Shown here in pieces: positions 41,480 through 58,534 of a stretch of 64,000 nucleotides of DNA. This stretch comes from a virus. Taxonomy: Duplodnaviria > Heunggongvirae > Uroviricota > Caudoviricetes. Within the stretch, counting starts at the first letter, position 1. Each line of letters opens with the position of its first letter. The notes below the pieces were generated by a model, which searched no databases, was not told the DNA's origin, and was given only the letters and a program-made list of their open reading frames with translations. A program made the translations under genes and the position numbers. The stretch lies in the IMG/VR virus record IMGVR_UViG_3300010370_000025; one strand, written 5' to 3'.

Positions 41480-42238
41480 ATGCAGACGATACTTATTACT
41501 GGGCATAAAGGCTTTATAGGAAGTCATTTATTTAAATATCTTTCTGAAAACTATAATTGTATAGGTCTAGATATAAAAGATGGTCAAGATATTAGATCAT
41601 GTGATTTACCTAACTGTAATATTATTATTCACTTAGCAGGGTTAGCAGGGGTAAGACATAGTTTTAATAAACCGGATTTATATTGGGATGTAAACGTTAA
41701 TGGATCAAAAAGAATATTTGAACACGCTAATAAAATAAATGCTAAAGTTTTATATGCTTCTAGCTCTACTGCTAAGAATCCAGAAACAAGTCCATATGCT
41801 CAAACTAAAAGAGCATTAGAATTAATATCTCCTAAAAATTCTATAGGCATGAGATTTCATACAGTATACGGAATTGATTCTAGACCGGATATGATGTATA
41901 GAAAGTTACTCGAAAATACAGCAGAATATATTACAACACATACTAGAGACTTTACAAGTATAAAAGATCTAATAGTAGCAGTTGAAATTTTATTATTAAG
42001 TGATTATACTGGTATTGTAGACATCGGTACTGGTGAGCAAGTTCAAGTATCGCAGCTTGCAGCTGCAATAGGTAGAAATTTACCATATAAAAGTGTTACA
42101 GGTGAACAGGTTTCAAGTAAAGCAGACACTAGAGTACTTAAATCTCTTGGCTGGTCACCTAAGTATGTCGTATTGGATGAAATAAAGAATGATCTTCTTC
42201 AAAAAAATAAGATGGAAAAATCTGTTAAGTACAGGTAA
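41480..42238 (+). CDS. Short NAD(P)-dependent epimerase/dehydratase (extended SDR) inserted between gp47 and gp46
   Basis: Rossmann motif 'ITGHKGFIGSHL' and a catalytic 'YAQTK' YxxxK. Confidence 0.6.
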   Translation: MQTILITGHKGFIGSHLFKYLSENYNCIGLDIKDGQDIRSCDLPNCNIIIHLAGLAGVRHSFNKPDLYWDVNVNGSKRIFEHANKINAKVLYASSSTAKNPETSPYAQTKRALELISPKNSIGMRFHTVYGIDSRPDMMYRKLLENTAEYITTHTRDFTSIKDLIVAVEILLLSDYTGIVDIGTGEQVQVSQLAAAIGRNLPYKSVTGEQVSSKADTRVLKSLGWSPKYVVLDEIKNDLLQKNKMEKSVKYR

Positions 42239-44113: not shown

Positions 44114-44279
44114 TTTTGAATCTAGATATCGTAAATGGCATACTTATATGTCTTATGTTAAGAGTGGTATTCGTATTGTTGCATTTGGCGGATTGGCATT
44201 AGGATTGATTGGAGCTGCATTTACAGCAACTCTATTACTTATTGCTGAATTAGTTGGTGTAGCAGAGGAGTGGGTATGA
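44106..44279 (+). CDS. Small predicted membrane protein (57 aa), missed by the ORF track
   Basis: ATG at 44106, a hydrophobic stretch 'IRIVAFGGLALGLIGAAFTATLLLIAELVGV', and a stop that overlaps the next ATG. Confidence 0.3.
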   Translation: MSDFESRYRKWHTYMSYVKSGIRIVAFGGLALGLIGAAFTATLLLIAELVGVAEEWV

Positions 44280-44896
44280 GCGATTATCGTTATGAAGTAG
44301 TAGGTATTTTTCCTTTACCAATTTTAGTAGCTTCTTTGCCTAGAGATTTTCTTCAGCTTGAAATAGACTATTTTCAAGATCTAGAAAGCAAAACAGTTGA
44401 TAATGTAGGTAATAAAGTATCTAAAAATAAAAATGTTTTAGGTGAGCCTGTATTAGGTCGTCTAAATGCAGATTGTCATAATTTACTTAAATGCTTTGTA
44501 GATAAAATTTATAACCCAGAAAATGAGTTAGAACCATATATTACTCAATCTTGGGTTAATTATACTACTGAAGGTCAAGATCACCACAGACACACTCATC
44601 CTAATAGTTGGTTATCAGGGGTAGTTTATATTAATGCAGATAAAGAACATGATAAGATTTATTTTCATAATGAGCCTTATAAACTAATTAATCCGGTTAC
44701 TAAAGAACATAATCCATTTAACTGTACGTCTTGGTCAATACCTGTAAAGACAGGAGATATTGTAATATTTCCGTCAGATATTTCACACAGCGTAGGAACA
44801 AAGACTGGCAATAATACTAGAGTTAGTCTAGCATTTAATAGCTTTGTAAAAGGTATTGTAGGAAGCTATGATGGCTCTACTGAATTAATTTTGTGA
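44276..44896 (+). CDS. 2OG-Fe(II) oxygenase superfamily protein (second paralog)
   Basis: 'HHRHTHPNSWLSGVVY' and 'IFPSDISHS' are paralogous to 35834-36634. Confidence 0.65.
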   Translation: MSDYRYEVVGIFPLPILVASLPRDFLQLEIDYFQDLESKTVDNVGNKVSKNKNVLGEPVLGRLNADCHNLLKCFVDKIYNPENELEPYITQSWVNYTTEGQDHHRHTHPNSWLSGVVYINADKEHDKIYFHNEPYKLINPVTKEHNPFNCTSWSIPVKTGDIVIFPSDISHSVGTKTGNNTRVSLAFNSFVKGIVGSYDGSTELIL

Positions 44897-44902
44897 GATA
44901 TT

Positions 44903-45400
44903 ATGAATATAATTAAATTTCCTGATCCAGTATTAACTACTGAGACTCAATATTTTGATTTTGAAAATCCACCTATGGATCCTAACGAACTATCTTTAAC
45001 GTTAATCCGTAAAGTGAATGAGCATAACGGGCTTGGATTATCCGCTAACCAGCTAGGTATTCCATATAAAGTGTTTGTTATTAAAGGCAATCCTAATATT
45101 GTATGTTTTAATCCTAAAATAGTATCCCATAGTGATGATGAAACTATTATGGTTGAAGGTTGCTTATCTTACCCCAATTTACTAATTAAGATTAGACGTC
45201 CAGTAGAGATTAGAACTCGTTTTCAAGTACCATCTGGAGTTACTACAACTAAACCATTTGTAGGTCTTACAGCAAGAGTATTTCAGCACGAACTAGATCA
45301 CCTTAACGGTATAGCATTTTTTAATAGAGCTAACCTTTATCATAAAGAACAAGCATTTAGGAAACTTAAAAATGACAACAGAAGAGCAGCCCAGCGCTAA
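44903..45400 (+). CDS. def: Peptide deformylase
   Basis: Three PDF motifs: 'GLSANQLG', 'EGCLSYP' and 'HELDHLNG'. Confidence 0.85.
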   Translation: MNIIKFPDPVLTTETQYFDFENPPMDPNELSLTLIRKVNEHNGLGLSANQLGIPYKVFVIKGNPNIVCFNPKIVSHSDDETIMVEGCLSYPNLLIKIRRPVEIRTRFQVPSGVTTTKPFVGLTARVFQHELDHLNGIAFFNRANLYHKEQAFRKLKNDNRRAAQR

Positions 45401-45685: not shown

Positions 45686-46522
45686 ATGTCAAAGATTAAA
45701 ATAGCAGAACTGTTCTATTCACTTCAAGGTGAGGGGCAGTATCTTGGAACTCCAAGCCTCTTTCTTAGAGTGTTTGGATGTAATTTTATGTGCCAGGGGT
45801 TCTCAATGCCTCGTGGTGAGCTCTCTGAAGAGCGTTTATCGATAGATCCAGCAAAATATGAAAAGTATGATAATTTACCTCTAGTACATACTGGATGTGA
45901 TTCATACGCGTCTTGGGATGCTCGTTTTAAGCATCTATCACCAATGCTTACAGTTGAAGCTATTGTTGATAGAATGCAGCAAATACTCCCAGGCGGTAAG
46001 TTTGGACATACTCATCTTATTCTTACTGGTGGTGAGCCTTTGCTTGGATGGCAAAGATCATATCCTGCTTTGTTGCAAGAAATTATTAACCGAGACATGG
46101 ATCTCGGATACATTACTTTTGAAACTAATGGTACGCAAGAGTTAACAGATCAATTGCAAGGTGTTCTTAAACACTTTAATGTTACTTATAGTGTATCATC
46201 TAAATTACCTTCTTCTGGAGAAAAATGGGAAGAAGCAATTAAGCCTGAAATTGTTAACAAATATGTTCGTAATGGTGATCTAACTTACTTTAAATGGGTC
46301 GTGTCAAACGAAGACGATTATAATGATGTCATCAAAGCTATTGATGAGTATAGTAAAGTTATCGATATGACACAAGTGCCTATTTACCTTATGCCTGCAG
46401 GTGGAACTACAAAACATTATGATAATAATGAAAAGTGGGTTGCAGATTTAGCTATGAAACATGGGTGGAGATATAGTCCACGTCTACAAGTTCAACTCTG
46501 GAAAAATGCATGGGGCACATAA
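45686..46522 (+). CDS. queE: 7-carboxy-7-deazaguanine synthase QueE (radical SAM)
   Basis: 'LFYSLQGEG', 'GCNFMCQGF' and 'LTGGEPLL'. Confidence 0.8.
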   Translation: MSKIKIAELFYSLQGEGQYLGTPSLFLRVFGCNFMCQGFSMPRGELSEERLSIDPAKYEKYDNLPLVHTGCDSYASWDARFKHLSPMLTVEAIVDRMQQILPGGKFGHTHLILTGGEPLLGWQRSYPALLQEIINRDMDLGYITFETNGTQELTDQLQGVLKHFNVTYSVSSKLPSSGEKWEEAIKPEIVNKYVRNGDLTYFKWVVSNEDDYNDVIKAIDEYSKVIDMTQVPIYLMPAGGTTKHYDNNEKWVADLAMKHGWRYSPRLQVQLWKNAWGT

Positions 46523-47052
46523 TGAGTAATAATACAGCAGATATAGTTATGCCAAAAGGCAGATTTTACAAATACGTTAGCACTAAAGAATATCATAACG
46601 CATTTCCATGTGCATACAGACAGTGGCGTGCAGACAGTCATTGTAATTTAATTCACGGCTATGCTTTTTCAATGAAATTTTATTTTGGAACAGATCATCT
46701 TGATGCTCGTAATTGGTGTGCAGATTATGGTGGTCTTAAGGAACTTAAGAAAGTACTAGAAGATCAATTTGATCACACTTTACTCGTTGCGCAAGATGAT
46801 CCAGAATTTGAAACATATAAATTGCTTGAAAGTAAAAACTTAGCTAAACTAACAGTACTACCTAAGCTAGGCTGTGAAGGTTTAGCTGATATGCTTTATA
46901 AGTATGTAAACGGGGTTTATATACCTGATATGTGGGGTCCAGGTGAAGCAGAACGTCTATGGTGTTTTAGAGTAGAAGTTCGCGAAACAGTTTCTAATAT
47001 GGCCTACCGTGAAGGCCACCGTGAATGGCATGAGGATCTATTTAATGACTGA
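46522..47052 (+). CDS. queD: 6-carboxy-5,6,7,8-tetrahydropterin synthase QueD
   Basis: PTPS-fold motifs 'CNLIHGYAF' and 'FDHTLL'. TAATG overlap with queE (alternative start 46510). Confidence 0.75.
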   Translation: MSNNTADIVMPKGRFYKYVSTKEYHNAFPCAYRQWRADSHCNLIHGYAFSMKFYFGTDHLDARNWCADYGGLKELKKVLEDQFDHTLLVAQDDPEFETYKLLESKNLAKLTVLPKLGCEGLADMLYKYVNGVYIPDMWGPGEAERLWCFRVEVRETVSNMAYREGHREWHEDLFND

Positions 47053-47812
47053 TAATGATTTTGATGTGATATATGATGAGTCTGGCTTTGTAGTAGGTCA
47101 GGTAAGTAAACCAATCTCTGCATCTAATAAAATTAAGCAAAGGTTACAAGATGCCAATCATCGCTATTATGCCAATGATAACATTAGCAAATTTTTGGAC
47201 GATAATACTCGTCAGCAGCTTATTGACGAAGTAGCAACTAAATTCGATGGTGTGCTTCGTTCACTGTTAATTGACGTTGATAATGATCCAAACTCTAAAG
47301 GTACAGCTAAGCGTCTCGCTAAGATGTATATTAATGAGATTATGAGAGGTAGATATCATGACGAACCAGACGTTACCTCATTTCCAAATGATGGCTCTCA
47401 TGGGACAGACCCTTATAAAGGTATGTTGGTTGTTAGGGCTGAACTTAAGTCTATGTGTAGTCATCACCATCAACCTGTTACTGGTACAGCATATATTGGT
47501 GTCATACCTAATACCCATGTTATTGGTCTCAGTAAGTACATTCGTATTGCGCAGCATTGTGCGCGACGTGGAACGCTACAGGAAGAACTTTGCGGAGACA
47601 TAGCAAAGGCAATTAGCTCTGCTACACAGTCAAAAGATGTAGGTGTGTATATTGAAGCAACTCATGGGTGCTGTGAGAACAGAGGTATTAGCGCGTCTAA
47701 CTCACTTACGCAAACAGCTGTGCTTATGGGTGACTTCCTTACTGATCCTTCAGTAAAGAACGAGTTCTATAGTAATATTAAGTTACAAACAAGTCGCTAT
47801 TCTTGTAACTAA
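47045..47812 (+). CDS. folE: GTP cyclohydrolase I (FolE)
   Basis: 'CSHHHQPV' and 'HVIGLSKYIRIAQHCARRGTLQEEL'. ATG at 47045 (track 47009). Confidence 0.8.
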   Translation: MTDNDFDVIYDESGFVVGQVSKPISASNKIKQRLQDANHRYYANDNISKFLDDNTRQQLIDEVATKFDGVLRSLLIDVDNDPNSKGTAKRLAKMYINEIMRGRYHDEPDVTSFPNDGSHGTDPYKGMLVVRAELKSMCSHHHQPVTGTAYIGVIPNTHVIGLSKYIRIAQHCARRGTLQEELCGDIAKAISSATQSKDVGVYIEATHGCCENRGISASNSLTQTAVLMGDFLTDPSVKNEFYSNIKLQTSRYSCN

Positions 47813-47870
47813 TTGAAATCATTGATAAAAAATAACAGTTGATTTCTTAACCTGTTGATATTATTATAAT
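47812..47870 (+). promoter_or_regulatory. Intergenic region carrying two copies of the ATTGAAATCATTGA/AACCTGTTGATA motif and TATAAT-like elements (putative sigma70-like early promoter)
   Basis: Motif shared with the 30011-30081 array. Confidence 0.4.
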
Positions 47871-47902
47871 AATTATAGGCTAATAAATGGAGATTTACAC
47901 CT

Positions 47903-48115
47903 ATGATTAATCTTGACAAATATGTACAACAGGTATGGAAAGCAGAAACTACAGAAAAGAAGCGAGAAGCTTTTAAAGAGCTTCTCGCAATTTCCCATGC
48001 TAAGACAGAAACTAAAGTAAAGGCGCTTAGAGATATTCAAACTCTTTCAGGTAAAAAGCTTGACACCTTTGCTACAAATTTTGCTTTTTCTGGTTACGGA
48101 CTTAAGGTAAAGTAA
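47903..48115 (+). CDS. Small hypothetical protein
   Basis: ORF only. Confidence 0.3.
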   Translation: MINLDKYVQQVWKAETTEKKREAFKELLAISHAKTETKVKALRDIQTLSGKKLDTFATNFAFSGYGLKVK

Positions 48116-48116
48116 T

Positions 48117-48551
48117 ATGACGTGGTATAAGAATGCTGAAGGTAGACATGGTGCTGCAGGAGCTAAAGGTGATGCAGGTGAAGAACTTGTCAAACATTAT
48201 CTAGAAGAAAGTAATATCAATTACGAGCATAAGACTGATATTGACAGTCAAGTTAATAAAAAGATTGACTTCATTGTAGAAGGTACTACAATGGATGTTA
48301 AGACTAATGCATACAAAGATTTTCTTGCAGTAGAAATTGCTACATCAAAAGGTAAACCAGGGTGGCTTTATACTTCTACTGCAGAAGAGATTTACGGTGT
48401 AGATTTAGAAAAAGAAGAGATATACAGATATCTACGTGAAGAGATGATTCAGTATGCAGCAGATAATGCGCATCGATTTAAAGTAACAAAAAATAATTCA
48501 GTACTACTTTGGGTACATAAAGATAATAAAATGATTGAGAGATTGCAATGA
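48117..48551 (+). CDS. Hypothetical protein (possible PD-(D/E)xK nuclease fold: 'IDFIVEG...MDVKT')
   Basis: Weak motif resemblance only. Confidence 0.3.
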   Translation: MTWYKNAEGRHGAAGAKGDAGEELVKHYLEESNINYEHKTDIDSQVNKKIDFIVEGTTMDVKTNAYKDFLAVEIATSKGKPGWLYTSTAEEIYGVDLEKEEIYRYLREEMIQYAADNAHRFKVTKNNSVLLWVHKDNKMIERLQ

Positions 48552-49339
48552 AGATAGCACATGAAGCACCAATAAGCATTTTTCCTCAAGTACAGCGCAT
48601 GACTGATTATGATTATGCGCTTGTTCACTTATTTGAATCTAATATGTTTTACTATCGCATGTTTAAAGATGCAGTTATTAACGGGCGTGAAGTTATTTTA
48701 GATAATTCTATTTTTGAATTGGGATATGCATTTGACGGTGATTCATATCATAATTGGATTTTAACTTTAAGCCCTACTTGGTATATTGTGCCTGATGTAT
48801 TAGAAGATACAAATGGTACTCTTAATAGTCTTAATAAGTGGTTTTCAAAGTTTGATATTCCAAAGCCTATTAAGTCTATTGGAGCTATTCAAGGTACTAC
48901 CTACGATGAAATTGTAGAGTGTTATCAGGGGGTTGAACCTTTTGTAGATAAGGTTGCTATATCATTTGATTTTTCTTATTATATTAAGTCAACAGAATAT
49001 TTAAAGCCTGATAATAAGTATTATGCTTGGATGCTTGGCCGTCAAAAGCTATTGAAAGATTTGCTTAATGATGGTATTATCAATACTAATAAACCCCATC
49101 ACCTTCTTGGGTGCGCATTACCTCAAGAGTTTTTAGCTTATAAAGATTATAAGTGGATTGACTCTGTAGATACTTCTAATCCTATTGTACATGGATTAAA
49201 TGGTATAGCGTATAAACCTAATGGTTTAGATGAAAAGATTTCTACTAAACTTATTGATTATATGACTGAGAGTGTTACTGATACTCAACTAGAATTTATT
49301 AAAGGTAATATTGAACAGTTTAGAAAGTTTTGTAAGTGA
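48548..49339 (+). CDS. tRNA-guanine-transglycosylase-fold protein (DpdA-like 7-deazaguanine DNA transglycosylase candidate)
   Basis: TGT-like motifs 'ILDNSIFELG' (cf. DSGGFQ), 'HLLGCALP' (cf. LMGVGTP) and 'IDSVDTSNP' (cf. GVDMFDCV). It is embedded among que genes. Confidence 0.5.
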   Translation: MKIAHEAPISIFPQVQRMTDYDYALVHLFESNMFYYRMFKDAVINGREVILDNSIFELGYAFDGDSYHNWILTLSPTWYIVPDVLEDTNGTLNSLNKWFSKFDIPKPIKSIGAIQGTTYDEIVECYQGVEPFVDKVAISFDFSYYIKSTEYLKPDNKYYAWMLGRQKLLKDLLNDGIINTNKPHHLLGCALPQEFLAYKDYKWIDSVDTSNPIVHGLNGIAYKPNGLDEKISTKLIDYMTESVTDTQLEFIKGNIEQFRKFCK

Positions 49340-49884
49340 AACCTTGGATTGCGCTCTTTAGTAATACTGGTAGCGAGCTCAAAAGGATCTGCGATCATTT
49401 TGATATATGGCCTACATCTGTAATTACTAATAATTTTAACTCGGATGATTGGCGTCATAATATTCCAGAAGATATTGTGACAATGATGTCACCTAGCGCT
49501 ATTCACGCCGGGTTTAAGCATATGTATAAAAGGCAGTTTGTTACTCTACATGGGTATATGAGAATATTGCCTCCAGAAGCATGTGAAATGCATGATGTAT
49601 ATAACGGGCATCCAGGCGCTATCAATCTTTATCCTGAACTTAAAGGTAAAGATCCTCAAGAGCGAGTGTGGAATGATCTAGGTAAATATGAGTTTATTGG
49701 TTCAGTTGTGCATAAAGTTACTGAAGAGCTTGATGGTGGTGAGATTGTAAGTAAAGTCTTTTGCGAAAACACTTGCACTTCTAAAGAAGAGCTCTATAAT
49801 ACAATTAGAGAAACTTCATTTAGATCATGGAAAAACTTTCTTTCAACTCATTTTGAGAGAGAGCTAGGAGTAAATAATGTCTGA
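49336..49884 (+). CDS. PurN/Fmt-family formyltransferase domain protein (DpdN-like candidate)
   Basis: 'NGHPGAINLYPELKG' and 'SVVHKVTEELDGGEIVSKVF' match the PurN catalytic-loop pattern (H..D). Confidence 0.7.
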   Translation: MKPWIALFSNTGSELKRICDHFDIWPTSVITNNFNSDDWRHNIPEDIVTMMSPSAIHAGFKHMYKRQFVTLHGYMRILPPEACEMHDVYNGHPGAINLYPELKGKDPQERVWNDLGKYEFIGSVVHKVTEELDGGEIVSKVFCENTCTSKEELYNTIRETSFRSWKNFLSTHFERELGVNNV

Positions 49885-50122
49885 CGCAATTAAACCTGAT
49901 CATTATAAAGCAGGTAATGCATTGTATAGCTGTATCGATGTTATTGAAGATCTTTGTAAAGGTACAAAGAACGATACGTTTACAGATTATAATAGATTTC
50001 AAGCTTTTAAGTATATCTGGAGAGCAGGTAATAAAGATCCTGTACTTCAAGATCTTAAGAAAGCAGTTAGATTTTTAGAATTTGCTATTGCATACGAGGA
50101 AAAGAAGAATGGTAAAAATTGA
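49877..50122 (+). CDS. DUF3310-like small protein (paralog 1)
   Basis: Shared motifs with 51059-51472: 'PDHY', 'FKYIWRAGNKDP' and 'DLKKA..FLE'. Confidence 0.45.
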   Translation: MSDAIKPDHYKAGNALYSCIDVIEDLCKGTKNDTFTDYNRFQAFKYIWRAGNKDPVLQDLKKAVRFLEFAIAYEEKKNGKN

Positions 50123-51059
50123 GGATATTGCATCAAAGCATTTAGGTAAAGCTGGCGACGGTTCGGTAGTTAAGCCTTATGTTACACCAGATAATATTGA
50201 CCCTAGTCTTTTAGTAGGCGTTCCTCGTTATCTTAATCGCATTCAGTATGCAATTGATGAAAACAACCTTCCTTTTGAAGGTTTTGATACTTGGAATTGC
50301 TATGAGTTTTCTGCATTAACTGATAATGGATTTCCTGTATGCGGGGTAATTCGTTGTGTATATTCTAGCAGCTCTAAGAATATTGTAGAGTCAAAGTCTC
50401 TCAAGCTTTATATGAACTCTTATAATATGGCAAGGCTTGGTAAAAGTGTTAAAGAGGTGACTGAAAACGCAGTTGCAACTATCCGTAAAGATCTTGTAGA
50501 GGTTCTTGGATTAGCTGATGAAAATGATTTGAATGTTTCATTTTGTGATGATCAAAGCCCTTCATATGAACCTATCAATGAGCCATATAAGTCAGCATTT
50601 GTTAAGCTTGAATATGTTAATGACATTGAAAATATGACGTTTGATCATTATAATGAAGATCCTAAGATTCTTCAAGTTATACCAACTAATAATTCATCGG
50701 TAGAATTTAAATGGAAGTCATCTGTACTTCGCTCTAATTGTAGAGTAACCAATCAACCCGACTGGGGTGATGTTTTTATTTCTATTAAAGGCGATAATAC
50801 AATTACTTCAGAATCTTTACTCCAATACTTAGTATCTATGCGTAAAGAAAATCACTTTCACGAAGAAATTTGTGAATGCATTTATAAGAGATTATATGAT
50901 CTACTTAATCCAGAAGAGTTGTTTGTAGCTTGTCTTTATACACGTAGAGGCGGTATAGATATTAATCCAGCTCGCGCTACTAATAAAGAGGTAGTTATGA
51001 AACATGCTTCTATGCTTTATAATTCATCAATTAATAATATTAAAACTTTGAGGCAATAA
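50109..51059 (+). CDS. queF: NADPH-dependent 7-cyano-7-deazaguanine reductase QueF (two-domain type)
   Basis: QueF signature 'ESKSLKLYMNSY'. ATG at 50109 (track 50082). Confidence 0.7.
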   Translation: MVKIEDIASKHLGKAGDGSVVKPYVTPDNIDPSLLVGVPRYLNRIQYAIDENNLPFEGFDTWNCYEFSALTDNGFPVCGVIRCVYSSSSKNIVESKSLKLYMNSYNMARLGKSVKEVTENAVATIRKDLVEVLGLADENDLNVSFCDDQSPSYEPINEPYKSAFVKLEYVNDIENMTFDHYNEDPKILQVIPTNNSSVEFKWKSSVLRSNCRVTNQPDWGDVFISIKGDNTITSESLLQYLVSMRKENHFHEEICECIYKRLYDLLNPEELFVACLYTRRGGIDINPARATNKEVVMKHASMLYNSSINNIKTLRQ

Positions 51060-51472
51060 TGACAAAAGCTAGTAAGAGTAATATGTTTGAAAAGAGTGCA
51101 GCAGAAGAGCCGTTTTTAGCTACTATGGGTTCAACAGAACCGTTCGGTGCAGTAGGATCTTCTATTAGTGTAGATAATGTTAGCTTTACAATGCAAGAAC
51201 CTGCTTATATATCTACTCAGTACGACGTCAATCAAGAAACAGTAGATCATCCAGATCATTATGGTGGTGCTGATAATCCTTATGAAGCAATTAAGGTTAT
51301 TCGCGCTTGGGACCTTGGATTTAGTCTAGGTAATACAGTAAAATATATTTCACGTGCAGGTAAGAAAGATCCTAATAAGCGTCTTGAAGACTTGCAAAAA
51401 GCACTTTGGTATTTAGAAGAAGAGATTCAGTATGAATTTGCAAAAAGCCTTGGACCACGTTCCGGATACTAA
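51059..51472 (+). CDS. DUF3310-like small protein (paralog 2, with an N-terminal extension)
   Basis: 'PDHYGG', 'VKYISRAGKKDP' and 'DLQKALWYLEEE'. Confidence 0.45.
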   Translation: MTKASKSNMFEKSAAEEPFLATMGSTEPFGAVGSSISVDNVSFTMQEPAYISTQYDVNQETVDHPDHYGGADNPYEAIKVIRAWDLGFSLGNTVKYISRAGKKDPNKRLEDLQKALWYLEEEIQYEFAKSLGPRSGY

Positions 51473-52205
51473 ACATAATGTTGTATCAGTTCTCTCCGGA
51501 GGGCTCGACTCTACTATTATGACTTATATTCTTGTACGTAAGTATGGTGCAAATAGAGTCTTTGCACTTTCATATAACTACGGACAGAAGCAAAAAGTAG
51601 AACTTGAAATGGCAGCTAAGACATGTGAGTATCTTGGCGTAGCACATAAGGTTCTTGATCTAAGCATCCTAGGTGATATTGTTAAGAACGTCTCTGCTAA
51701 CATTGGTGGTAGTGATGTTAATATGCCTACTATTAAGGATGTGCTTGGAGATCCTCAACCTAAGACATACGTACCCTTCCGTAATATGATTCTTAATTCG
51801 TTAGCATTCTCGTTTGCAGAAGCTAATAAAGCAAGTCATGTATTTACTGGATTACAAGTACATGATGAATATGGTTATTGGGATACTACTCAGAAGTTTG
51901 TAGATAGTATGAATGCAGTAGCAGATCAAAATCGTACTCATAAAGTTAAACTAGAAGCGCCTTTTAGTCTTCTTTCTAAGTATGATGAACTTATGATAGC
52001 TAAAGAACTTGGTAATGTTCGTTTAGAATATACTCTTACCTGCTATGATCCAGATGAACAAGGTCGTTCATGCGGTATTTGCCCATCATGCTCTGAACGT
52101 CTTCAAAATTTTATTAAAGCAAATATGAGAGACCCTATTCAATACCAACCAGGTAGAACTGTTGATTGGGATAGGTTTCTTATTAACGGTGGTGTAAGCT
52201 ATTAA
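51432..52205 (+). CDS. queC: 7-cyano-7-deazaguanine synthase QueC
   Basis: PP-loop 'SGGLDS' and a C-terminal zinc motif 'CGICPSCSERL'. Confidence 0.8.
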   Translation: MNLQKALDHVPDTKHNVVSVLSGGLDSTIMTYILVRKYGANRVFALSYNYGQKQKVELEMAAKTCEYLGVAHKVLDLSILGDIVKNVSANIGGSDVNMPTIKDVLGDPQPKTYVPFRNMILNSLAFSFAEANKASHVFTGLQVHDEYGYWDTTQKFVDSMNAVADQNRTHKVKLEAPFSLLSKYDELMIAKELGNVRLEYTLTCYDPDEQGRSCGICPSCSERLQNFIKANMRDPIQYQPGRTVDWDRFLINGGVSY

Positions 52206-52849
52206 TGTGCAGTATATTTGGCAGTTTTAGTACTGAAAAGTTAAAAGAGTTAGCTGAGCTTAATTTATATAGAGGTCAGCACTCTTATTCTTTTTCATAC
52301 TATGATATCCTTAAAAGACAAATCACCTTTATGCAGAAAGATTTAGGTGAATTGCCTATTAATGACATTAATATACCTGAAGGGCATTATGCAATAGCAC
52401 ATATGCAAGCTCCCACTACAGGTAATAAAAGAGCTAACACTATACACCCGGCTACTATAGGCGTGCATAGTCTTTGGCATAATGGTATTATTAAAGATCA
52501 TTGTGTAAAAAATATGTCACGTAATACCGTTTTTATTGAAAATGGTGATTTAGATTATCTTTCTTGGGATACTTATTTAATTCTCCATCAGTATGTTTAT
52601 CAAGGCAATATAAATAATATAGATGGTACATTTTCATGCGTATACTATAGTGAGCGTGATGGATTGAGATTGTTTCGTAATGAGATATCACCGCTTTTTA
52701 TTGATAAAGAGCACAACATATCCTCAACTAAATTTAACGATTCAGAATCGCTAATGCCTAATATTATCTGGCAATTTTTGCCAGGTGAAGGTATAATGTC
52801 AATTGATACCTTTAAAACAGTAGAAAACCCTTATTATTTTGGAATATAA
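52205..52849 (+). CDS. Class-II (Ntn) glutamine amidotransferase-like domain protein, free-standing downstream of queC
   Basis: Begins 'MCSIFG', i.e. a nucleophile Cys right after Met as in AsnB/GATase-II. TAATG overlap with queC. Confidence 0.5.
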   Translation: MCSIFGSFSTEKLKELAELNLYRGQHSYSFSYYDILKRQITFMQKDLGELPINDINIPEGHYAIAHMQAPTTGNKRANTIHPATIGVHSLWHNGIIKDHCVKNMSRNTVFIENGDLDYLSWDTYLILHQYVYQGNINNIDGTFSCVYYSERDGLRLFRNEISPLFIDKEHNISSTKFNDSESLMPNIIWQFLPGEGIMSIDTFKTVENPYYFGI

Positions 52850-52852
52850 TTC

Positions 52853-53362
52853 ATGATGATTCATATTGCATCTAAAGAGACTGGATCTTCTCTTACTAAT
52901 TTAGTTGAAGCAGATATTCAACCTAATGCTGTAGATCTTAGAGTGAGTAAAATTTTCTCTATTAATCAAAATACTTTTGTTATCGGTGAAGATGATGATG
53001 GCAAAGAGACAAAAATTCATCGAGGTTCTACTGAAGTATATCCAGATGAGTACGGCTATTATACTCTTGACCCTGGCTCATATGAAGTAATTATGGAAAA
53101 TATTATTTCAGTGGGAGCTGATGAAGCGGGGTGGGTTATTACTCGTTCTACTCTTAATCGTAATGGTGTATATATTACTAGCGGGTTATATGATTCAGGT
53201 TATAATGGTGTCATGGCTGGCGCACTTCATGTAACTAGAGGTACTGCCCGTATTAAGAAGGGTACTCGAGTAGGGCAATTCCTATTATTTAAGTCTCAAT
53301 CTCTTAAGAAATATGATGGAGATTACGGTATCGGTAAGGCGCATGATCAAAAATATAATTGA
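52853..53362 (+). CDS. dUTPase/dCTP-deaminase-fold protein
   Basis: 'SGLYDSGYNGVMAGALHV' resembles the dUTPase/dCD motif III region. Predicted beta-rich. Confidence 0.45.
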   Translation: MMIHIASKETGSSLTNLVEADIQPNAVDLRVSKIFSINQNTFVIGEDDDGKETKIHRGSTEVYPDEYGYYTLDPGSYEVIMENIISVGADEAGWVITRSTLNRNGVYITSGLYDSGYNGVMAGALHVTRGTARIKKGTRVGQFLLFKSQSLKKYDGDYGIGKAHDQKYN

Positions 53363-54419: not shown

Positions 54420-55097
54420 ATGAAACTTAGTGAACAGACTATTAATATTTTAAAGAACTTTTCAGTTATTAATAATAACTTGCTTGTTAACCCAGGTAAT
54501 ATTCTTACTACTGTTGCCCCGCAATCACGTTCCGTGTACGCTAAAGCAAACGTAGAAGAAACTTTTCCAAAGCAATTTGCTATCTATGAATTGAATAAGT
54601 TTCTTGGTGTAGTATCTCTCTTCAAGGAACCAGAGCTTGAGTTTGGTGATATGTCAGTTAAGATTGTCTCAGGTAGACAATCAGTAAGCTATACATATGC
54701 AGACCCATCTATGGTTATTGCACCAGATCCTAATAAGGATATTAATTTTCCGACAGCAGATATTGAGTTCTCCATTTCTCAAGAAGAACTTCAGCGCGTC
54801 GTAAGGGCTGCAGGTGTTCTTCAGTTGCCGGAAATTGCAGTGACTGGTGATGGTGCGAACATTACCGTCACTGCTACTAATTCAAAGAATCCAACTACTG
54901 ATGTATTCAGTATTGAGGTAGGTGAGACTAATCATACTTTTAATATGTTAATTAAAGCAGAAAATATTATTAAGTTAATTTCTGCTAACTATGAAGTAAA
55001 GATTACATCGCGCGGACTAGCACAATTTAAGTCTAATAATGTAATCTATTATATTGCAACAGAAGCTAATAGCACATTTAATAAGGATGAAAATTAA
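54420..55097 (+). CDS. gp45: Sliding clamp gp45
   Basis: Colinear with T4 gp45 ('MKLS..T..LKNF..IN'). Confidence 0.85.
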   Translation: MKLSEQTINILKNFSVINNNLLVNPGNILTTVAPQSRSVYAKANVEETFPKQFAIYELNKFLGVVSLFKEPELEFGDMSVKIVSGRQSVSYTYADPSMVIAPDPNKDINFPTADIEFSISQEELQRVVRAAGVLQLPEIAVTGDGANITVTATNSKNPTTDVFSIEVGETNHTFNMLIKAENIIKLISANYEVKITSRGLAQFKSNNVIYYIATEANSTFNKDEN

Positions 55098-55690
55098 TGA
55101 ACGTATATATTCTACTTGACAGATCAGGTTCTATGTCAAGTCTTTGGAATGAAGCAATTGGCGCTATTAATGCATACGTAAAAAAGCTTGACAAAAAGAC
55201 CAAGATCTTTTTATCAACTTTTGATAATGAAAGCTATGATGTTCTTCGTAACTCTAGTGTAAAAGAGTGGAAGGATATTGGTGAGAAAGAATCGCATCCT
55301 AGAGGTATGACTCCTCTTTATGATTCTTGTGCACGTATTATGAATCGTGCAATTGAAGATAATAGCGATAAAACTATTCTTGTCGTAATGACAGATGGTT
55401 TTGAGAATTGCTCAAGAGAGCATACTCGTGAACAGATTAAAGCTAAGATTAAAGACTTTGAAAAGAAAAACTGGGAAGTTGTTTTTCTCGGAGCAAACTT
55501 TGATAAGGTAGATTCAGTTGCATCTGATCTCGGGCTAGCGTATAATAAGTTTACAAATATTACTACAAATAACCTTAGATCGTATATGATGGGTAGTCTA
55601 GCTGACGCTACTGTAGCATATACTACTGCAGGTACTGCAGTAAATATTACTGACAAAGATAAGATGTCTGCTACTAAAGCATCAGTCTAA
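55097..55690 (+). CDS. von Willebrand factor A domain protein (MIDAS 'DRSGSM') inserted between gp45 and gp44
   Basis: vWA motifs 'LLDRSGSM', 'T....' and 'VVMTDGFEN'. Confidence 0.7.
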   Translation: MNVYILLDRSGSMSSLWNEAIGAINAYVKKLDKKTKIFLSTFDNESYDVLRNSSVKEWKDIGEKESHPRGMTPLYDSCARIMNRAIEDNSDKTILVVMTDGFENCSREHTREQIKAKIKDFEKKNWEVVFLGANFDKVDSVASDLGLAYNKFTNITTNNLRSYMMGSLADATVAYTTAGTAVNITDKDKMSATKASV

Positions 55691-57463: not shown

Positions 57464-58534
57464 ATGTATAATTATGATGATGTTAGAGTAGTTCATTTAG
57501 AAATTACTCAAAAGTGTCAAGCTTCCTGTCCGATGTGTGACAGAAATCAAAATGGGGGCTTAATCAACCCCCATCTTTCTTTAGCTGAACTCTCCTTAGA
57601 AAATTGTAAGCAAATATTTGAGCCTGCTTTTATTAAGCAGCTTAACTACATGTATATGTGTGGTAATTTAGGTGATCCTATTATTGCTAATGATACTCTA
57701 GAAGTATTTGATTACTTTCGCACACATAACCCTAACATGAAACTAAGCATGAATACCAATGCAGGTGCTAGAAATCAGCAATGGTGGCGAGATCTTGCTA
57801 AAGTATTAGGCCCGAAGGGGATGGTAAGATTCTCTATAGATGGATTAGAAGATACTAATCATATCTACAGAAGAGGTGTTCAATGGGATAATGTAATGAG
57901 CTCTCTTACCAGTTTTATTGATGCTGGAGGTAACGCTATATGGGATTATTTAATATTTGATCATAATGCACATCAAGTAGAAGAAGCAAAAAAATTATCA
58001 GTTAATCTAGGTGTAAAAACTTTTGTAGAAAAGAAAACATCTAGATTCTATAGTACAGCAAAAACATCTCTTAAAGATACTCATACTGTAAAAGATCGTA
58101 AAGGTAACGATCAATATGATCTAAAACCAGTAGATACACCTCTTAATAATAAAATTAATAATACTATAGATAAGCATGGTAGTCTATCTAACTATTATGA
58201 TACAACAGAAATAGTTTGTAAAGTAAAAGAACAAAAAAGTATTTTTATTACTGCTGAAGGTCTAGCAATGCCTTGTTGCTGGACTGCTTCCCGTATGTAT
58301 AAGTGGTGGCATAAAGATCCTAAAGTAGAACAGGTGTGGCAATTTATTAAAGATACAGATAGAATAAACGTTCTTAAACACGGTATTAAAGATGTGCTTA
58401 ATAATGGTGTATTTCAAGATATAGAAGTAAGCTGGGGGCTTCGATCAGTAGCAGAAGGTAAACTGAAAGTATGCTCTGAGAAATGTGGTAAAGAGTTTGA
58501 TCCGTTTAAGGAACAATTTGTTAATGCAAAATAA
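57464..58534 (+). CDS. Radical SAM enzyme with a C-terminal SPASM/twitch-like Cys cluster (rSAM-A)
   Basis: 'ITQKCQASCPMC' (CxxxCxxC), 'CGNLGDP', and a C-terminal 'C-x12-G-x4-CC ... CSEKCGKEF'. Confidence 0.65.
   Translation: MYNYDDVRVVHLEITQKCQASCPMCDRNQNGGLINPHLSLAELSLENCKQIFEPAFIKQLNYMYMCGNLGDPIIANDTLEVFDYFRTHNPNMKLSMNTNAGARNQQWWRDLAKVLGPKGMVRFSIDGLEDTNHIYRRGVQWDNVMSSLTSFIDAGGNAIWDYLIFDHNAHQVEEAKKLSVNLGVKTFVEKKTSRFYSTAKTSLKDTHTVKDRKGNDQYDLKPVDTPLNNKINNTIDKHGSLSNYYDTTEIVCKVKEQKSIFITAEGLAMPCCWTASRMYKWWHKDPKVEQVWQFIKDTDRINVLKHGIKDVLNNGVFQDIEVSWGLRSVAEGKLKVCSEKCGKEFDPFKEQFVNAK

Follow-up and report, generated by a model that had tools for sequence, protein, structure and literature searches.

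The gene at positions 49336–49884 on the plus strand of IMG/VR virus record IMGVR_UViG_3300010370_000025, a 64,000-nucleotide stretch of Caudoviricetes DNA referred to here as the window, encodes a formyltransferase of 182 residues. Sequence comparison identifies it as an apparent DpdN orthologue and a new member of a published family, the founding member of which is the formyltransferase of the Flavobacterium phage immuto (Cui et al., Nucleic Acids Res 2023, PMC10516641). The window protein probably functions as a preQ1 transformylase in a pathway that leads to virion DNA containing 7-(formylamino)methyl-7-deazaguanine (fdPreQ1). A previous reading of the window, made from the nucleotide sequence without database searches, had proposed that the protein N-formylates the aminomethyl group of preQ1 in DNA to give a formamidomethyl-deazaguanine. 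This idea is supported but had already been published in 2023 as the predicted function of DpdN, and the family motifs, the separation from PurN in 200 of 200 bootstraps and the neighbouring DpdA3 and QueF genes, all described below, point to the same prediction for the window gene.

The open reading frame initiates at a GTG codon that overlaps the stop codon of the preceding DpdA gene by 4 nt, and homologues start at the equivalent residue. Both the frame and its PurN/Fmt-type motifs are present exactly as the sequence-only reading had described them, with the quoted motifs located at H92-P93-G94 and between S123 and V138 ('SVVHKVTEELDGGEIV'). The protein matches the Pfam domain PF00551 (Formyl_trans_N) at 37.8 bits against a gathering cut-off of 26.1 (E 2e-9), which is far beyond chance. 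It had also been described as short, yet its length is normal. A search of 5.8 billion proteins returned 311 family clusters at 90% identity, in which the length is nearly always 170–190 residues, and the outgroup cyanophage PurN proteins have 174–191 residues; E. coli PurN has 212. An AlphaFold2 model, for which 34 family sequences were supplied with the immuto row left out, reached a pLDDT of 93 and a pTM of 0.88 and consists of a single PurN-like domain. The best Foldseek matches of the model among solved structures are chains of PurN, the glycinamide ribonucleotide (GAR) transformylase, over their full length (E 5e-11, TM 0.70–0.76), followed by PurU, ArnA, sugar N-formyltransferases and Fmt. 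The model suggests that the protein is intact rather than truncated and that the complete PurN fold is present.

DpdN was the name given to a PF00551 protein encoded beside the immuto cluster, described as a 'proposed preQ1 or dPreQ1 formylase', and the DpdN group of that study comprised four proteins only (PMC10516641). When the DNA of immuto_2-6A was analysed by liquid chromatography–tandem mass spectrometry, fdPreQ1, which is 28 Da heavier than dPreQ1, was found whilst deoxyguanosine (dG) and dPreQ1 were undetectable, such that fdPreQ1 replaces all of the dG in the immuto phage (PMC10516641). No mention of DpdN or fdPreQ1 was found in a search of the later literature. In a tblastn comparison with 50,697 GenBank phage records, the sole relatives of the window protein are those of the Flavobacterium vB_FspM_immuto phages (38% identity, 92% query coverage, E 3e-26), and pairwise comparison with the archetype, YP_010114479.1, also gives 38% identity (E 2e-35). 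The matched immuto gene, immuto26A_67 (QQO91746.1), adjoins the immuto DpdA gene with one small open reading frame between them.

The window protein and the archetype have in common the signature motifs W-x-A-x-FSQTGSE, TLHGYLRI, YNGHPG-x-I-x-x-YPELKGKDPQE and GSVVHK-x-T-x-x-x-D-x-GE. Across the family these appear as FS(Q/N)TGSE, TLHGY(L/M)RI, YNGHPG..YPELKGKDPQE and GSVVHKVT..D.GEI, and a 35-sequence alignment that includes immuto contains 27 invariant columns. A neighbour-joining tree placed E. coli PurN and three PurNs of cyanophages on one side of a split, and the window protein together with immuto DpdN and 11 metagenomic relatives on the other, in 200 of 200 bootstraps. Within this set the window protein has identities of 21–23% to the PurNs, 36–38% to immuto and 42–76% to the metagenomic relatives.

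Against the NCBIfam PurN equivalog TIGR00639, which has a cut-off of 150.1 bits, the window protein scores 30.6 bits and immuto DpdN 55.4, compared with 281 for E. coli PurN. The PurU model TIGR00655 gives the window protein 18.5 bits against a cut-off of 285.95, and the protein has no N-terminal extension, the ACT domain being absent from the structural model. The Fmt model TIGR00460 does not match the window protein and gives immuto DpdN 20.6 bits against a cut-off of 201.5; the C-terminal tRNA-binding domain of Fmt is likewise missing from the modelled single domain. The PF00551 domain is present in a short single-domain form, unlike the 'longer forms' that make up group 3 of PMC10516641. 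On these sequence criteria the window protein is not a PurN orthologue.

The active site was compared in an alignment of 117 family proteins, the window protein, immuto DpdN, E. coli PurN and the three cyanophage PurNs. Three residues, N90, H92 and D133, are invariant in all 119 DpdN-family sequences and correspond to Asn106, His108 and Asp144 of PurN. Asn106 is a catalytic residue of PurN, and complexes of PurN with GAR have the loop at positions 10–13 bound to the GAR phosphate and Glu173 bound to the ribose. His108 and Asp144 have been named as catalytic (PMC3261824), and a published list of six folate-site positions in PurN includes Leu85, Ile91, positions 140, 141 and 143, and Asp144 (PMC5562383). 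In the DpdN family L71 (Leu85), I77 (Ile91) and D133 (Asp144) are kept with little or no variation, and G73 and R76 agree with G87 and R90 of PurN. Elsewhere, residues conserved in the four PurNs are exchanged for others that are invariant in DpdN, namely N10 for T11, N13 for E14 (119 of 119), A86 for H72, I105 for Y89 and I107 for G91 (119 of 119). No conserved counterpart of Glu173 was found in the C-terminal helix of the 119 DpdN sequences, where S161 and W165 are invariant, although their positions are approximate. A retained triad and donor-site core together with a remodelled presumed acceptor site would be expected for a PurN descendant that has acquired a new amine acceptor and still uses 10-formyltetrahydrofolate. 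The residues of interest are thus L71, I77 and D133 on the donor side together with the triad, and E14, T11, H72, Y89, G91, S161 and W165 at the replaced sites.

The family is widely represented in environmental virus sequences. Scanning IMG/VR by motif identified at least 550 contigs that encode a relative, and the genetic context was recorded in a census of 80 IMG/VR loci. In every one of these DpdN is part of the same DpdA/QueF cluster, with DpdA upstream wherever the contig extends far enough, except in locus L062. QueF is found no more than 1.2 kb downstream in 67 of the 68 loci that have at least 1.8 kb of downstream sequence, and a strict distance criterion places DpdA immediately upstream in 61 of 68 loci with more than 900 nt of upstream sequence. 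The same module is present within T4-like genomes on eight independently retrieved long contigs. The DpdN family appears to be phage-borne, because a scan of 185,579 species-representative genomes produced six loci only, all of them on contigs of metagenome-assembled genomes and all with DpdA beside DpdN.

The window itself derives from a T4-like phage that has not been cultured and encodes homologues of gp55, gp47, gp46, gp45, gp44, gp62 and RegA. It is 99% identical to the IMG/VR contig UViG_3300021963_008114, and a megablast search with 20 kb of the window found no match among GenBank phages, so it does not represent a sequenced isolate. FolE, QueD, QueE, QueC, QueF and DpdA3 all fall within positions 45686–52205, in agreement with the deazaguanine-cluster setting that had been read from the sequence, and no pur genes adjoin DpdN. 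The cluster is composed as follows.

45686–46522, plus strand: QueE (CDG synthase, radical SAM), with weak Radical_SAM/Fer4_12 matches; homologous to immuto QueE (E 1e-9)
46510–47052, plus strand: QueD (PTPS family), Pfam PF01242, E 1e-14
47009–47812, plus strand: FolE (GTP cyclohydrolase I), Pfam PF01227, E 9e-40
48117–48551, plus strand: conserved 144-residue protein with a PD-(D/E)xK-like signature, directly 5' of DpdA3
48548–49339, plus strand: DNA guanine transglycosylase of the DpdA3 subfamily, 263 residues, 55% identical to immuto DpdA; phrog_19058
49336–49884, plus strand: DpdN-family formyltransferase, 182 residues, with PF00551, N90/H92/D133 and the signature motifs
49877–50122, plus strand: first DUF3310 protein, 81 residues, between DpdN and QueF; Pfam PF11753, E 3e-10
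50082–51059, plus strand: QueF, bimodular preQ0 reductase; Pfam QueF_N E 3e-28 and QueF E 5e-23, NCBIfam TIGR03138 226.5 bits
51059–51472, plus strand: second DUF3310 protein, 137 residues; Pfam PF11753, E 3e-13, 39% identical to the first copy
51432–52205, plus strand: QueC (preQ0 synthase), Pfam PF06508, E 4e-54
52205–52849, plus strand: Ntn-type (Cys2) glutamine-amidotransferase-like protein, with weak purF/GlmS N-terminal matches; phrog_12378
52853–53362: DCD/dUTPase-family gene

The transglycosylase encoded immediately before DpdN has no Pfam match, and its 55% identity to immuto DpdA is accompanied by an E value of 2e-99. Its other relatives among GenBank phages are those of the CP220 group of Campylobacter phages only, at 42% identity. 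Both the immuto and CP220 groups have been assigned to DpdA3, the subfamily tied to complete replacement of G (PMC10516641). Complete replacement has been seen in DpdA3 phages only, DpdA3 was inactive when tested in E. coli, and the nucleoside of 7-amido-7-deazaguanine (ADG) was detected in CP220-infected cells (PMC10516641).

From these genes a pathway can be proposed in which FolE, QueD, QueE, QueC (with its amidotransferase-like partner) and QueF would convert GTP into preQ1. DpdN would transfer the formyl group of 10-formyltetrahydrofolate to the 7-aminomethyl nitrogen of preQ1 by a PurN-type Asn/His/Asp mechanism, and DpdA3, which is presumably translationally coupled to DpdN, would put the deazaguanine in place of guanine in the phage DNA. 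The pathway would be expected to end in virion DNA in which G is replaced, probably completely, by fdPreQ1, thereby blocking restriction enzymes. The fold, the retained residues, the family membership and the genomic context are established by the present analysis; the donor, acceptor and product are put forward on the basis of orthology to a phage of known DNA chemistry.

Formylation of the free preQ1 base before insertion is tentatively preferred, as the protein is modelled as a small single domain that lacks a DNA-binding module, and the immuto DNA contains no residual dPreQ1 (PMC10516641). Moreover, the invariant E14 and the aromatic residues at the remodelled sites could serve to read an unpaired 2-aminopyrimidinone edge, as in other preQ0/preQ1-binding proteins. 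The isoelectric point, considered as an indicator of DNA binding, is uninformative; the median for the DpdN family is 6.3, but it does not discriminate between the stages because DpdA, which necessarily binds DNA, has a value of 5.2. A lesser but still substantial possibility, and the one worded in the sequence-only reading, is that the same chemistry acts on dPreQ1 that is already in the DNA, where formylation would form a lock that drives the DpdA3 exchange to completion. Bacterial DpdC is known to turn preQ0-DNA into ADG-DNA (PMC10164549), DpdM has been proposed to methylate preQ1 within DNA (PMC10516641), and the overlapping, always adjacent DpdA and DpdN genes are compatible with a complex on DNA. 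Set against this, a PurN-fold domain of 182 residues carries no extra DNA-binding module, Glu14 and the aromatics would suit a free or flipped-out base, and the absence of any remaining dPreQ1 from immuto DNA is easier to explain if the base is formylated before insertion. Formylation of a nucleotide is unlikely.

Other functions for the gene would place it outside DNA modification altogether, as in the alternative of the sequence-only reading, a folate-dependent step unrelated to DNA, which is disfavoured by the location of all 80 loci in a DpdA/QueF cluster and by the failure to reach the PurN equivalog cut-off. One of these is an ordinary purine auxiliary gene, a GAR transformylase that has come to lie near queuosine genes by accident. 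PurN is the nearest characterised family by both sequence and fold, and the window protein resembles it (E. coli b2500; PDB 1CDE/1GAR) in its whole-chain fold (TM about 0.7), the triad, L71/I77/D133, G73/R76 and its likely 10-formyltetrahydrofolate donor. The best PHROG match is 'cyanobacterial phosphoribosylglycinamide formyltransferase', T4-like cyanophages do encode purN, and public pipelines label members of the family as PurN. Nevertheless, the protein has only 21–23% identity to the PurNs and scores 30.6 bits where 150.1 are required, it separates from them in every bootstrap, and it possesses a family-specific YPELKGKDPQE loop. The PurN-conserved N10, N13, A86, I107 and E173 are all replaced, with the N-terminal loop and central motifs carrying other invariant residues (E14, T11, H72, Y89, G91), and there is no purine-pathway context, since the gene invariably lies in a DpdA/QueF cluster, with no other pur genes in its vicinity. 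That it is a genuine auxiliary purN can be all but excluded. It is also very improbable that the protein is a PurU-like formyltetrahydrofolate hydrolase, or a formyltransferase for some other acceptor (Met-tRNA or an amino sugar, for example) with no relation to a DNA base. The best match among PDB sequences is indeed a PurU (E 1.7e-5), sugar N-formyltransferases and ArnA are among the fold matches and a peptide deformylase gene is located 4 kb upstream, but the PurU ACT domain and the C-terminal tRNA-binding domain of Fmt are both absent and the scores to both models are far under their cut-offs. In addition, the linkage to DpdA3 survives rearrangements of gene order, and the fdPreQ1 of the archetype needs a formyltransferase, for which DpdN, beside the cluster, is the authors' candidate (PMC10516641).

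The assignment as a preQ1 transformylase has several points that weigh against it. The identity to the archetype is moderate, at 38%, and fdPreQ1 chemistry is known for immuto_2-6A only, whereas the window phage is uncultured. 10-Formyltetrahydrofolate is the most likely formyl donor, as judged only from the triad and those folate-site positions that are kept, and three of the six residues listed for the folate site, those at PurN 140, 141 and 143, align with variable positions of the DpdN family. The remodelled loop and residues belong to what is presumed, from the GAR contacts of PurN, to be the acceptor site, and the register of the C-terminal helix relative to PurN shifts by one residue between two alignments, making acceptor-site claims in that region soft. 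Finally, the function of DpdN is a prediction throughout the family, including the archetype, for which the word used was 'proposed' (PMC10516641).

A third gene accompanies DpdA3 and DpdN. The gene that directly follows DpdN in 68 loci encodes an AAA_28 P-loop protein in 47 cases and a DUF3310 protein, as in the window, in the other 21, with no locus having neither. The AAA_28 protein in this slot is homologous to the 'thymidylate kinase' of immuto and has no significant match among PDB sequences. DUF3310 is found at residues 122–184 of T7 gp1.7, annotated in GenBank as a nucleotide kinase (E 4.5e-23). Three proteins, P0022, P0024 and P0028, are DpdN::DUF3310 fusions, and the linkage is kept in rearranged loci, with the order AAA_28-DpdA-DpdN in L101 and DUF3310-DpdA-DpdN in L100. 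Campylobacter phage CP220 (L103) has DpdA3, no DpdN and 100% dADG, and the gene after its DpdA3 encodes an AAA_28 homologue of the slot protein (31% identity, E 4e-26). The constant presence of a kinase-related gene, either AAA_28 or DUF3310, beside DpdA3/DpdN is a new observation; the word 'kinase' is absent from PMC10516641, where this linkage is not mentioned.

Further genes of nucleotide metabolism occur in the DpdA3 clusters of two cultured phages. In CP220, DpdA3 is preceded by gp055, which combines an HD phosphohydrolase with an AAA_33 kinase-like domain (L103 3868–4899), and the immuto cluster contains a phosphoribosyltransferase and a MazG/PRA-PH-like NTP pyrophosphohydrolase (L001 5887–6282 and 7326–7850). 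DpdA3 clusters with such nucleotide-metabolism enzymes are reminiscent of base replacement at the nucleotide level.

Three roles can be envisaged for the kinase-related gene. In the more conventional reading, the P-loop protein may serve transglycosylation on DNA as an ATPase partner in the manner of DpdB, by analogy with the bacterial system (PMC10164549). It is also possible that it is a GMP/dGMP kinase through which guanine set free by DpdA3 is returned to GTP for use by FolE. The third and least likely of the three is synthesis at the nucleotide level instead of modification after replication, an improbable scheme in which DpdA3 would exchange the base of dGMP, DpdN would formylate the resulting dPreQ1 5'-monophosphate and the kinase-related gene product would phosphorylate the modified deoxynucleotide for the polymerase. 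PurN, the presumed ancestor of DpdN, likewise acts on a ribose-5'-phosphate substrate. Several observations fit this scheme without proving it. These are the pairing of a kinase-related gene with DpdA3 in immuto, CP220 and T4-like contigs from aquatic sources, the HD/MazG-like phosphohydrolases and phosphoribosyltransferase in the CP220 and immuto clusters, the restriction of complete replacement to DpdA3, the inactivity of DpdA3 in E. coli and the ADG nucleoside in CP220-infected cells.

In comparison with known systems, the window gene is closest to immuto DpdN. Both encode a single PF00551 domain of about 175–182 residues with all of the signature motifs and the N/H/D triad, both follow the gene order DpdA3, DpdN, kinase-related gene and QueF, and the two DpdA3 proteins are orthologous at 55%. 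They differ in that the formyltransferases are only 38% identical, the window phage is an uncultured T4-like phage rather than an Immutovirus, the slot gene is DUF3310 in the window and the AAA_28 'thymidylate kinase' in immuto, and QueC is followed in the window by the amidotransferase-like gene. DpdM, from Cellulophaga phage phiSM and Vibrio phage VH7D, is similar to DpdN in that it tailors the 7-aminomethyl nitrogen of preQ1/dPreQ1 within a phage DNA modification cluster, and VH7D-type vibriophages, like the window, carry an amidotransferase-like gene adjacent to QueC. In contrast to DpdN, however, DpdM has an unrelated fold, uses methylation chemistry and has been experimentally validated; it is associated with partial modification and another DpdA subfamily, DpdN with DpdA3 and complete replacement.

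The bacterial Dpd system (DpdA/DpdB/DpdC; PMC10164549) likewise employs a TGT-like transglycosylase to insert a 7-deazaguanine into DNA; it depends on the ATPase DpdB as a partner, and tailoring falls to a further enzyme, DpdC. The combination of DpdA3, a P-loop or DUF3310 gene and DpdN resembles this arrangement, although the partners are not homologous, as DpdB does not belong to AAA_28, nor DpdC to the formyltransferases. The bacterial system also modifies less than 0.1% of G, with preQ0 or ADG as the base (PMC10516641, PMC10164549).

The window gene adds no new principle, as both DpdN and fdPreQ1 were described in 2023. Its value lies in a family that is still predicted only and is far larger than reported, for which specific residues and a conserved third partner have now been identified. 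From four proteins, DpdN has grown into a large, tightly conserved clade whose members belong mainly to T4-like phages that have not been cultured. The exchange of all G for formyl-preQ1 may thus be widespread in the environment, and biochemical validation has many candidates to choose from. Public pipelines label the homologues P0001–P0135 as PurN, methionyl-tRNA formyltransferase, formyltetrahydrofolate hydrolase and, once, anthranilate synthase. The DpdN name has not been propagated, and with PurN, Fmt and PurU labels in place, readings of viral metagenomes miscount DpdN among the auxiliary genes of purine synthesis, such that counts of viral 'purine' auxiliary metabolic genes may be inflated.

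Several other genes of the window merit description. The final base of the QueC stop codon is also the first of the amidotransferase-like gene, the order QueC then amidotransferase is found in most of the related loci, and homologues adjoin QueC in the vibriophages KVP40, phi-Grn1 and VH7D. The protein is probably an ammonia donor for QueC. A role in producing archaeosine (dG+), as with Gat-QueC, was considered and is unlikely because phi-Grn1, which has a homologue beside QueC, contains dPreQ1/mdPreQ1 and no dG+ in its DNA (PMC10516641).

The 144-residue protein encoded at 48117–48551 is conserved in 36 of 59 related loci, and its invariant E22, D51 and D60-x-K62 resemble the PD-(D/E)xK nuclease motif. 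It has no match in Pfam, NCBIfam or PDB sequences, including a profile search of the PDB, and no similarity to the immuto MazG-like or CP220 HD proteins. A nuclease that acts on unmodified DNA would be a speculative assignment, and membership of the DpdA3/DpdN module is uncertain.

Just 5' of QueE are genes for a peptide deformylase (44903–45400, plus strand) and a 2OG-Fe(II) oxygenase (44270–44896, plus strand). The deformylase retains its position beside QueE in many related loci and is found elsewhere in others (L010/L011). A functional pairing of deformylase and formyltransferase is unsupported, as the former is located elsewhere in some relatives. Elsewhere in the window, an NAD-dependent epimerase/dehydratase (41480–42238, plus strand) is encoded between the gp47-like (Mre11) and gp46-like (Rad50) genes and overlaps the start of the latter. 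A VWA-domain protein (55097–55690, plus strand) lies between the homologues of the gp45 clamp and the gp44 clamp loader, and a radical SAM/SPASM protein (57464–58534, plus strand) follows the RegA-like gene.

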